Assembly (NCBI GenBank): GCA_012839865.1
Contig: DUMO01000013.1
Location: 1 to 64,000, forward strand
Reading direction: 5' to 3'
Length of the DNA: 64,000 nucleotides
Origin: Clostridiaceae bacterium
GTDB lineage: Bacteria; Bacillota; Clostridia; CAYPLH01; DUMO01
Part shown: positions 49,149-50,350 of the stretch, piece by piece
How the letters are laid out: each line of letters opens with the position of its first letter
How positions within the stretch are numbered: position 1 is the stretch's first letter
Made by a program: the position numbers and the translations under genes
Notes under the pieces: generated by a model
Database searches by the model: none
Told to the model about the DNA's origin: nothing
Seen by the model: the letters and a program-made list of their open reading frames with translations, nothing else

Positions 49149-49628
49149 GTGAAAATTACTATAATAGCTGTTGGCAAACTAAAGGAAAAATTTTTGAGAG
49201 ACGGAGTTAATGAATATAAAAAGAAGCTGTCGCATTTTTGCAAGCTGGAAATAATCGAAGTCAACGACGAGCCCATACCGGACAATCCGAATCCGTCACA
49301 AGAAAGCCAGGTAAAGGGGAAAGAAGCAAAAAGCATTTTATCAAAAGTAAAAGATGGCTCCTGGATTGTTGTGCTTGACATAAAGGGTGTGAAAATGAGC
49401 TCCGAAAAGCTGGCATCGGAATTGGACAAGTGGATGATTTCGGGAAAATCTGACATAACCTTTATTATAGGCGGGTCCCTGGGGCTCGGGGAGGAAGTTT
49501 TGAAAAAGGCGAATGTGTCTCTTTCCTTGTCGGACATGACATTTCCCCATCAGCTTGCCCGGCTGATACTTGTGGAGCAGATATACAGGGCCTTTAAGAT
49601 AATAAGGGGCGAAACCTATCATAAATAG
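49149..49628 (+). CDS. rlmH: 23S rRNA (pseudouridine1915-N3)-methyltransferase RlmH (SPOUT)
   Basis: VKITIIAVGKLKEKF...IIGGSLGL is the RlmH signature. GTG 49149 after AAGGAGA. The ORF is open from 49059. Confidence 0.9.
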   Translation: MKITIIAVGKLKEKFLRDGVNEYKKKLSHFCKLEIIEVNDEPIPDNPNPSQESQVKGKEAKSILSKVKDGSWIVVLDIKGVKMSSEKLASELDKWMISGKSDITFIIGGSLGLGEEVLKKANVSLSLSDMTFPHQLARLILVEQIYRAFKIIRGETYHK

Positions 49629-49660
49629 GAAAGGCAGTATTATCCTCATAACATAGTATA
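49613..49660. repeat. Direct repeat copy 1 (ATCATAAATAGGAAAGGCAGTATTATCCTCATAACATAGTATAACAT), overlapping the rlmH stop
   Basis: 48 bp, 47/48 identical to 50303-50350. Confidence 0.8.
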
Positions 49661-49697
49661 ACATTTAGATGGGTTTGTGATATAATATTGATGTAAT

Positions 49698-49994
49698 ATG
49701 TATGATAGGCAGGTGAATAATGTGAGTCCGCTATCGAAAGAGTTAATTATAAAGTTAGCAAAGGAAAATGACTCAGAACTTCTTAAAGAAGTTTTAAATT
49801 ATTATGCCTTTTTAAAGAATAAGAAGGAGCAGGAAGCCAAGAAACAGTGGGAAAGTATTAAAGAAGTCCAGCCTGATAAAGAAGAAATTGAAATCATTAA
49901 TGAATTTGAGAACAGTCCTGAGAAATTTGAGTTTGTCAGTATGGAAGAAGTTCTGAAGGAGTTAGGGATTAATGAATCAGAACTACAAAATTAA
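49698..49994 (+). CDS. Putative antitoxin of a RelE/ParE-type toxin-antitoxin pair
   Basis: 98 aa acidic protein whose stop overlaps the toxin start by 23 nt. No family assigned from sequence alone. Confidence 0.45.
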   Translation: MYDRQVNNVSPLSKELIIKLAKENDSELLKEVLNYYAFLKNKKEQEAKKQWESIKEVQPDKEEIEIINEFENSPEKFEFVSMEEVLKELGINESELQN

Positions 49995-50226
49995 CATAAG
50001 CAAGAATGCTTTGAAGTTTATTAATAAACAGGATATTTATCAAAGGAAGAGAATATTATCTGCTATTTATGGATTGCCTAAGGGAGATGTAAAGAAGTTA
50101 AAAGGCTATGAGTATTATAGACTTAGAGTTGGAGATTTCAGAGTTATTTTTACTAAGAATGATAAAGAACTCATAATACTTGTTATCGATATAGGAAATA
50201 GAGGTCAGGTATATGAGAATTTATAA
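49972..50226 (+). CDS. relE: RelE/ParE-family type II toxin (mRNA interferase fold)
   Basis: 84 aa with ...RVGDFRVIF...ILVIDIGNRGQVY, characteristic of RelE/StbE/ParE toxins. Confidence 0.7.
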   Translation: MNQNYKINISKNALKFINKQDIYQRKRILSAIYGLPKGDVKKLKGYEYYRLRVGDFRVIFTKNDKELIILVIDIGNRGQVYENL

Positions 50227-50302
50227 ATTTGTCGTACATGATGTACGACTTTTTATTTAATATTCTAAGGAAAGTCATGTATCCAGTAATACACGGTGAA
50301 CC

Positions 50303-50350
50303 GTATCATAAATAGGAAAGGCAGTATTATCCTCATAACATGGTATAACA
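50303..50350. repeat. Direct repeat copy 2 (ATCATAAATAGGAAAGGCAGTATTATCCTCATAACATGGTATAACAT)
   Basis: Second copy of the rlmH-3'-end repeat. Together with 49613-49660 it brackets the RelE cassette. Confidence 0.8.

Follow-up and report, generated by a model that had tools for sequence, protein, structure and literature searches.

Recombinase-less toxin-antitoxin cassettes probably integrated site-specifically at the 3′ end of rlmH in Clostridia

The 64,000-nucleotide stretch of contig DUMO01000013.1 analyzed here (Clostridiaceae bacterium, assembly GCA_012839865.1; positions 1 to 64,000, hereafter the window) carries at the end of its rlmH gene what is probably a two-unit array of small recombinase-less cassettes, site-specifically integrated into the last rlmH codons and moved by a Ccr-like enzyme acting in trans. 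Unless stated otherwise, all features lie on the forward strand. The first unit is a relBE cassette of 687 bp (49611..50297), which extends from a GA dinucleotide inside rlmH to the end of a conserved right end, and the second is a hicBA cassette with a truncated right end (50298..50922). Each cassette would constitute one operon with a replacement rlmH end, a leader with a TG-extended promoter, a toxin-antitoxin pair, a terminator and a right end. Confidence is very high that these are mobile cassettes inserted site-specifically by crossover at GA, and distinctly lower for the enzyme, which is somewhat more likely than not a Ccr-type large serine recombinase.

The cassette boundaries emerge from a map of the junctions in about 30 loci, built from rlmH, a TAYCATAA core, the leader and a recurrent right-end motif. 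The anatomy is constant: the host rlmH is followed by GA, by cassette-supplied codons of the form NNNN-TAYCATAA-R-stop, by the cargo, by the right end GTCATGTATTCAGTAATACACGGT, by a second GA and by a displaced host tail. TAYCATAA is present in all junctions, and the junction lies five codons before the rlmH stop with the reading frame kept. To the left of GA the sequence is host-specific (AAT, AAC, GGC, GGA or GGG), and the switch from host to cassette falls exactly at GA. To the right of it, the relBE cassettes continue with the constant tail GACCTACCATAAGTGA and the hicBA cassettes with either GCCGTAYCATAAGTGA or ACCGTATCATAAATAG, in each case followed by the leader. At the distal end stands the consensus AGTCATGTATTCAGTAATACACGGT, seen in 20 distinct junctions regardless of cargo; after it come GA and a tail of host-specific sequence, whose stop is TAA, TAG or TGA, with unrelated DNA beyond. 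Since this tail varies from host to host after a constant right end, it represents the original rlmH end of each host.

In the window, the rlmH gene (49149..49628) encodes the 23S rRNA pseudouridine1915 N3-methyltransferase, as judged by matches to NCBIfam NF000985 (232.7 bits, positions 1-159 of 159) and PF02590 (205 bits); it starts with GTG preceded by AAGGAG, and its closest relatives are from Acetivibrio/Acetivibrionales, with 65-73% amino acid identity. The left attachment (att) core, direct repeat DR1 (49611..49628), consists of GA (49611-49612) and AACC-TATCATAA-ATAG, which are the last rlmH codons and the stop, and the last 16 nt of the gene (49613-49628) can be read as cassette-derived. 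The right end of the relBE cassette, a P half-site with the sequence GTCATGTATCCAGTAATACACGGT, occupies 50274..50297, and it directly precedes a second att core, DR2 (50298..50315), with the sequence GA plus ACCG-TATCATAA-ATAG, which is also the left end of the hicBA cassette; the DR2 allele GA(A/G)CCGTATCATAAATAG-GAAAGG heads hicBA cassettes directly after rlmH elsewhere as well (loci L053 and L067). Direct repeats that include the last rlmH codons flank the elements in about 30 loci, and the relBE unit has both att sites.

A cassette would replace the last four sense codons and the stop of rlmH (NNNN-TAYCATAA-R-stop). Strands would be exchanged within the Glu codon, at the GA that lies 6 bp upstream of TAYCATAA, so that rlmH would remain intact with a cassette-supplied tail and its native tail would be moved distally. 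The 24-nt right end (GTCATGTATTCAGTAATACACGGT) would imitate the rlmH codons upstream of the crossover; in the rlmH frame it reads ..VMYPVIHG and mimics the codons before GA (..VIHG compared with ..IINGE or ..IIRGE), as would be expected if one enzyme reads both half-sites. A preliminary description of the window had proposed insertion of a mobile cassette into the rlmH 3′ end with duplication of the target or attachment site. The site-specific mobile cassette stands, but simple target duplication does not, as the tail now on rlmH is cassette-supplied and the native end of the host gene is displaced to the far end of the array.

Both empty and occupied sites are found. In the type strain of Acetivibrio clariflavus, DSM 19732, the empty site reads AACAAC/GAAACGTATCATAAGTGA/GAGAAAAGTT, and in GCA_029777045.1, a metagenome-assembled genome (MAG) of the species with an identical RlmH protein, the occupied site reads AACAAC/GAGACATATCATAAGTAG/, followed by 2.9 kb and then by AACAACGGT/GAAACGTATCATAAGTGA/GAGAAAAGTT. 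At the exchange point, GA is all that the two partners have in common; it lies 6 bp before TAYCATAA, and the bases flanking it differ on both sides (GAAACG versus GAGACA, and AACAAC versus AACGGT). The closest relative of the window's host, with which the upstream synteny is common, has a single unoccupied rlmH site, and contigs of the host's own species join rlmH directly to hicBA. The preliminary description had pointed to related genomes as the place to look for empty sites; such sites exist, and the same cassette follows unrelated rlmH genes in many genomes.

Tyrosine recombinases need 6-8 bp of identical overlap. The shared core of only 2 bp suggests a serine recombinase, and the same limited identity, with differing flanks on both sides, speaks against movement by a tyrosine recombinase, be it on integron-like attC sites or in the manner of Xer/dif modules. 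Such an enzyme is improbable, although small recombinase-less arrays that often carry toxin-antitoxin genes do resemble those of chromosomal integrons and the pdif modules of Acinetobacter, and no recombinase of any kind is tied to the cassettes. The junction DNA has a minimum free energy of -3.8 to -4.4 kcal/mol with z between +0.14 and -0.36 relative to shuffles, unlike attC hairpins; the attC-like model was dropped since the composite junction as single-stranded DNA folds no better than shuffled sequences. In addition, the cassettes carry their own promoters, unlike typical integron cassettes, and a crude screen for tyrosine-recombinase motifs gave no match.

The leader, or arm, is a 36-nt sequence common to the relBE and hicBA cassettes and present in a few others; in the window it occupies 49629..49664 and equals 50316-50351 except for 1 nt, and it supplies the -35 element of the TG-extended promoter. 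The leader was considered as a part of the att site and rejected. Cassettes with other, unrelated leaders and other cargo (L027, L037 and L072) use the same att junction, and the leader is therefore not required for recombination. In a "Clostridium sp." population without a cassette (L079, ~9463-9520), the sequence after the rlmH stop is GGGAAAGGCAGTG, followed by a terminator-like hairpin, and the first ~12 nt of this post-stop DNA match the start of the cassette leader (GAGAAAGGCAGT), which hints that the leader may have descended from a native rlmH terminator region.

The horizontal spread of the cassettes is evident from their distribution. A scan of one genome per species with a 27-nt leader probe retrieved 8 species representatives, and a metagenome scan added 20 further loci. 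The relBE cassette is present in the isolate Thermoclostridium caenicola DSM 19027 (NZ_FQZP01000032.1), among other hosts, and the other leader-bearing hosts include MAGs labelled Caloramator, Tissierellia, Haloplasmataceae and Clostridiaceae/Clostridiales. Between all pairs from eight hosts the relBE cassettes are 92-100% identical, compared with 52-62% for the adjoining rlmH genes, and all pairs of hicBA cassettes are 95-100% identical, compared with 57-81% for rlmH. An identical RelE protein is listed in 27 collection blocks that represent two unrelated genomic contexts, and the exact HicA protein in 213 blocks. The second context (context B) has the gene order EPSP synthase - Lactamase_B - rlmH - cassette - Fe-ADH - HflX; between it and the window the cassette body is 98.6% identical and the rlmH genes about 58%, and the DNA can be aligned solely from the rlmH end to a short rlmH-like stub after relE. 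An exact-protein search with the 159-aa RlmH gave no match, the gene call in the collection being 189 aa long. The A. clariflavus pair of an empty and an occupied site, the shuffled cassette order and a cassette identity far above that of the hosts all indicate that the cassettes move independently.

Several observations concern individual hosts. Most of them (L048-L079) resemble staphylococci in having rlmH directly after a walRK-yycHI-murA-like-yycJ (Lactamase_B) block. The window's lineage and L080, its sister, instead have ~9-10 kb ahead of rlmH with DUF5305, an S26 peptidase and a LuxR-type two-component system (window positions 37026-48460). In T. caenicola DSM 19027 (L023, ~1845-2100 of NZ_FQZP01000032.1), codon 24 of relE is changed from CAA to the premature stop TAA and the antitoxin is intact, which by its sequence is toxin decay in a resident cassette.

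As most of the loci are metagenome contigs or MAGs, a conserved toxin-antitoxin segment could in principle have produced chimeric joins and with them a false impression of many hosts, and short k-mers were used in the Logan assemblies. One contig of 957 nt (L017, ENA ERZ925057) folds back at AGAACTTCTT, an inverted repeat within the antitoxin gene, and is by this pattern an assembly hairpin chimera rather than biology. As an account of the whole distribution, however, assembly artefacts are the most improbable of the explanations weighed here. The cassette occurs in the isolate T. caenicola DSM 19027 and lies internally in long high-coverage contigs such as NODE_207 (88 kb, coverage 842), and chimeras would not place the rlmH tail of each host just after the conserved right end.

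The order of the cassettes differs between hosts. The window has relBE followed by hicBA, while an abundant Acetivibrionales population (L048/56/57) has hicBA followed by relBE, its close relatives L049/L054 and another host (L052/L055) carry hicBA alone, and in Tissierellia and Haloplasmataceae MAGs (L021, L027) other cassettes stand ahead of relBE. The P0028 population is fixed for the order hicBA-relBE without variation, a result for which the exact-protein criterion is biased towards one cassette tail. The cargo of the other cassettes comprises PemK/MazF (three cassettes), HEPN_Cthe2314, a DUF2281 antitoxin, DUF2971 and GNAT proteins. Such arrays would arise if further cassettes entered at any junction of this kind, in an order differing from host to host, and the toxin-antitoxin cargo would favor retention of the cassettes.

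The small units might instead be inert leftovers of larger recombinase-bearing islands similar to the staphylococcal cassette chromosome (SCC), never moving alone. Islands with large serine recombinases do occur downstream of rlmH in several Bacillota, including tandem composites (PMC10061031), the hicBA unit of the window has itself decayed, and at L044 an island of at least 10 kb with restriction-modification (R-M), primase-like and small resolvase genes lies upstream of small cassettes. Nevertheless, we regard this as a rather unlikely origin. At least eight unrelated hosts have the same complete unit of 661-687 bp, with both ends intact, as the sole insert between rlmH and host DNA, and independent decay would not yield identical boundaries every time; moreover, the order is shuffled between closely syntenic hosts and no remnants of island genes flank the units. 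The L044 island (1-10728 of ENA OWOZ01002053, with an A. clariflavus-like right flank) encodes a 679-aa primase-like protein, a 207-aa small serine recombinase and a putative type III R-M pair (580 and 846 aa). Its 284-aa open reading frame (ORF) ends just before the TATCATAA core without the usual right-end motif, and the island may represent another type of element that occupies this site.

The direct repeat that drew attention to this locus was placed in the preliminary description at 49613-49660 and 50303-50350 as 48 bp with 47 of 48 positions identical. The repeat is real, but its core is 47 nt long (49618-49664 and 50305-50351) with 46 of 47 positions identical, and it includes a perfect stretch of 37 nt (49618-49654 and 50305-50341). 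With upstream sequence the similarity reaches 65 nt (49600-49664 and 50287-50351; 58/65, 89%), and weaker similarity of 83% extends over ~88 nt when the downstream sequence is included (49600-49687 and 50287-50373). The copies start 687 bp apart, and there are two of them in the 64-kb window, compared with zero expected from 100 shuffles. Only the first 11 nt of the 47-nt repeat (ATCATAAATAG) belong to the att core, while the other 36 nt are the shared promoter-bearing leader. As was claimed, the first copy includes the last codons and the stop of rlmH (TAG at 49626-49628, in a gene assigned to RlmH by NF000985), and the 640 nt between the copies encode only the antitoxin ORF and the RelE/ParE toxin. 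The hicBA pair was likewise correctly located next after relBE (hicB 50392-50610, hicA 50607-50837), but it is not native flank, being itself a cassette of the same family. The concern that the repeat might be a common genome-wide element is answered by its two copies in the window and by its occurrence elsewhere, always at rlmH or at a cassette junction with the exception of L038. There, at 766-785, one metagenome match to the 20-nt leader probe falls within unrelated coding sequence that has neither rlmH nor a core or right end in its vicinity, and this match is probably due to chance.

The repeat also bears on a purely local origin, by duplication or homologous recombination without any site-specific system. 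The near-identical leaders of the window, with 37 nt in perfect match, would also let homologous recombination delete or reinsert relBE. Compared with the common form GTGA-GAGAAAGG, the derived variant in both window leaders, TATCATAAATAG-GAAAGG, is shorter by 2 nt; one hicBA allele normally has this variant (L053, L067). It therefore seems that either the left end of relBE was homogenized with its neighbor or an exchange inside the leader brought the relBE unit in. Contigs of the window's own species without relBE (L012, L015, L016 and L018) read rlmH-GAAACC...CATGG-hicBA, which is consistent with exchange inside the identical 37 nt and not at GA. L012 has single-nucleotide polymorphisms (SNPs) in hicB and is therefore from another strain, and the relBE-less structure of L018, a low-coverage SPAdes contig, is more likely real than a repeat collapse. 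In L010 (9600-9700; DRR066660), again from the window's species, rlmH ends with GAACCG (..EPYHK) rather than GAAACC (..ETYHK) ahead of the relBE leader, and from its sequence this is an exchange of alleles between the two att cores within the species. These five loci and the shared derived leader fit exchange within the repeat, and recombination between the repeats, which the preliminary description had offered as the alternative, is thereby left with a minor role. As the sole explanation it has next to no probability and is refuted, since it fails on the same cassette following unrelated rlmH genes with host-specific displaced tails and on cassettes with different leaders at the same GA (L027, L037, L072); if it acts, it does so only in addition to site-specific insertion.

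Within the relBE cassette of the window, a promoter-like site at 49658..49686 (ATAACA-17-TGnTATAAT) agrees with the consensus at 10 of 12 positions and has the TG extension, a match by consensus only. It precedes the putative antitoxin gene (49722..49994), the role of which is suggested by position; the product has 90 aa when read from GTG at 49722, or 98 aa from ATG at 49698, and has no match to a Pfam or NCBIfam family. The gene overlaps by 23 nt with that of the RelE/ParE-family toxin (49972..50226; 84 aa, PF05016 with 28.4 bits at a cut-off of 23), which is followed by an intrinsic-terminator-like hairpin (50231..50249) with an 8-bp stem and a T run. In the hicBA cassette, a similar promoter-like site (50345..50372, ATAACA-16-TGnTATAAT; 10/12 with TG) precedes hicB (50392..50610; 72 aa, PF15919, 34.7 bits) and hicA (50607..50837; 76 aa, PF07927, 71.9 bits), which overlap by 4 nt, with both domains in one operon.

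The distal part of the hicBA cassette is lost. Up to 50922 the window is identical to the intact cassettes of L031/L032 but for 2 SNPs, and beyond this position the sequences are unrelated. Intact hicBA cassettes measure 644 nt from the arm to the right end and have a conserved terminator followed by TTTTTATATG; in the window, a terminator hairpin, as read from the sequence, is present at 50901..50921 (GGACCTCC-TTTTT-GGAGGTC) with its T tail lost to the deletion, and ~45 nt are gone, among them the right end and the terminal att core. The cassette abuts, outside its own limits, a histidine kinase remnant on the reverse strand (50923..52116) that is 3′-truncated at the deletion junction and has a frameshift near 51201-51238. 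The ORF at 51238-52116 holds HAMP and HisKA (positions 3-27 of 66) domains, and the ORF at 50770-51201 has only positions 1-40 of 111 of HATPase_c, cut at the hicBA junction. With the last ~45 nt of hicBA missing and a truncated kinase adjoining it, the deletion therefore took the distal att site, the native rlmH tail and a part of the kinase. The kinase pseudogene is the partner of an OmpR-type response regulator (52113-52844).

The recombinase would be supplied in trans, as a large serine recombinase of the Ccr kind encoded elsewhere in the genome or on a co-resident element. The att sites of Ccr are described as two half-sites around a central GA, where strand exchange occurs, 6 bp upstream of TATCATAA (bioRxiv 10.64898/2026.03.31.715619). 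The TATCATAA core is common to SCCmec and the enterococcal ECC (PMC6222049). The crossover in the cassettes, inferred from sequence boundaries, coincides with this SCC geometry.

A number of points weigh against this model. No recombinase is encoded in the cassettes, the 687-bp unit consisting of two toxin-antitoxin ORFs only; gene calls within 7-10 kb of the looked-up sites include no Resolvase or Recombinase Pfam family, and in 702 kb of sequence, a crude motif screen that covered the 621 ORFs with 150 aa or more detected a single small resolvase, that of L044. A Pfam search of 10 large window ORFs revealed no integrase, and the cognate recombinase was not found in the 64-kb window or in flanks of up to 20 kb elsewhere. 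No circular intermediate was observed, and the dyad symmetry of the composite site is weak (~7/13 by eye) and is not relied upon. The parallel between GA and Ccr comes in part from a secondary citation, and since the rlmH C-terminus is conserved for protein reasons, a TAYCATAA shared with SCC alone is no proof of a related enzyme. Finally, most host records are metagenome contigs or MAGs, and three Logan contigs without relBE could represent repeat collapse in short-k assembly. The small resolvase of L044 was rejected as the cassette recombinase, as it is part of an R-M/primase island ~8 kb from the array and fits a general association of resolvases with defense genes (PMC13552941). As for a vector, neither the leader nor the right-end motif was found in IMG/VR (0 matches each), and the region of both cassettes had no blastn match among the plasmids of PLSDB or the phages of INPHARED, so that no vector was identified.

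The resemblance to SCC/SCCmec is nonetheless extensive, comprising insertion at the 3′ end of rlmH (orfX) with the ORF kept intact, direct repeats that include the last rlmH codons, tandem arrays, the TATCATAA core and an inferred crossover at GA 6 bp upstream of it. In contrast to SCC elements, which are 20-60 kb long and carry ccr genes and a replication module (PMC9072672, PMC10061031), the cassettes described here are about 0.65-2.9 kb, contain a single operon and no recombinase, and have right-end and leader half-sites of their own; SCC elements reside in Bacilli, these cassettes in Clostridia, Tissierellia and a Haloplasmataceae-labelled MAG. The closest functional analogue are the ccr-less SCC-like cassettes of staphylococci (ACME, COMER and defense-enriched tandem cassettes), which likewise are att-bounded, lie downstream of rlmH, lack a recombinase of their own and are excised in trans by CcrAB (PMC11470126). 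Those, however, are several to tens of kb in size and reside beside a ccr-bearing SCCmec. Around the cassettes described here, 7-10 kb of flanking sequence revealed no ccr-type gene; the units are minimal, have uniform ends and bring their own promoter, and copies from different orders are nearly identical. The enterococcal ECC and the serine-recombinase islands of Bacillota also integrate into the rlmH end with the TATCATAA core and form composites with several rlmH-end repeats, but they are large, encode recombinases and occur in Bacilli (PMC6222049; PMC10061031); rlmH islands with large serine recombinases are known from several Bacilli, and the Clostridia examples in the same work are in ssrA (PMC10061031). 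With chromosomal integrons the cassettes share the organization in arrays of small recombinase-less single-function units, often toxin-antitoxin, at one site and in variable order. They differ from them in having no attC-like hairpin and no adjacent integrase and in carrying their own promoters; gene tables and the motif screen show no integrase-like ORF next to rlmH in any locus. The cargo itself matches known type II RelE/ParE and HicAB families (PF05016, PF07927, PF15919) above cut-offs in the usual overlapping two-gene layout, except that the relBE antitoxin matches no family, and the novelty is in the vehicle and not in the toxins. A literature search of incomplete coverage returned no account of rlmH-end cassettes in Clostridia or of such minimal promoter-equipped units.

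Integration at the rlmH end is best known from SCCmec, the element that creates methicillin-resistant Staphylococcus aureus (MRSA). To our knowledge, the earlier extensions to enterococci and some Bacilli have always been large islands or passengers beside them. Here, minimal cassettes of one operon each, with standard ends and a built-in promoter, use the same att geometry in Clostridia, Tissierellia and a Haloplasmataceae-labelled MAG, apparently at the rlmH position that is also reported for SCCmec, the staphylococcal resistance island. The tiny cassettes stack into arrays in many Clostridia from anaerobic digesters, and since near-identical copies are found across orders in these communities, their sequences indicate that exchange among digester hosts is recent and frequent. 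In a bolder and rather doubtful interpretation, rlmH in Clostridia and their relatives could be an integron-like capture platform with a dedicated recombinase, perhaps resident in the host and maybe not close to Ccr, at which promoter-equipped toxin-antitoxin and defense mini-cassettes would be shuffled between distant anaerobes under the att grammar GTCATGTATTCAGTAATACACGGT, GA, NNNN-TAYCATAA. For genome annotation, the finding is a warning that the last rlmH codons and the DNA beyond them are often foreign. If the recombinase is found, the cassettes would offer a simple natural system for in-trans mobilization by serine recombinases, a compact pair of an attB site and an att-bearing cassette for the engineering of cellulolytic Clostridia such as Acetivibrio, and a marker locus for finding toxin-antitoxin and defense genes.

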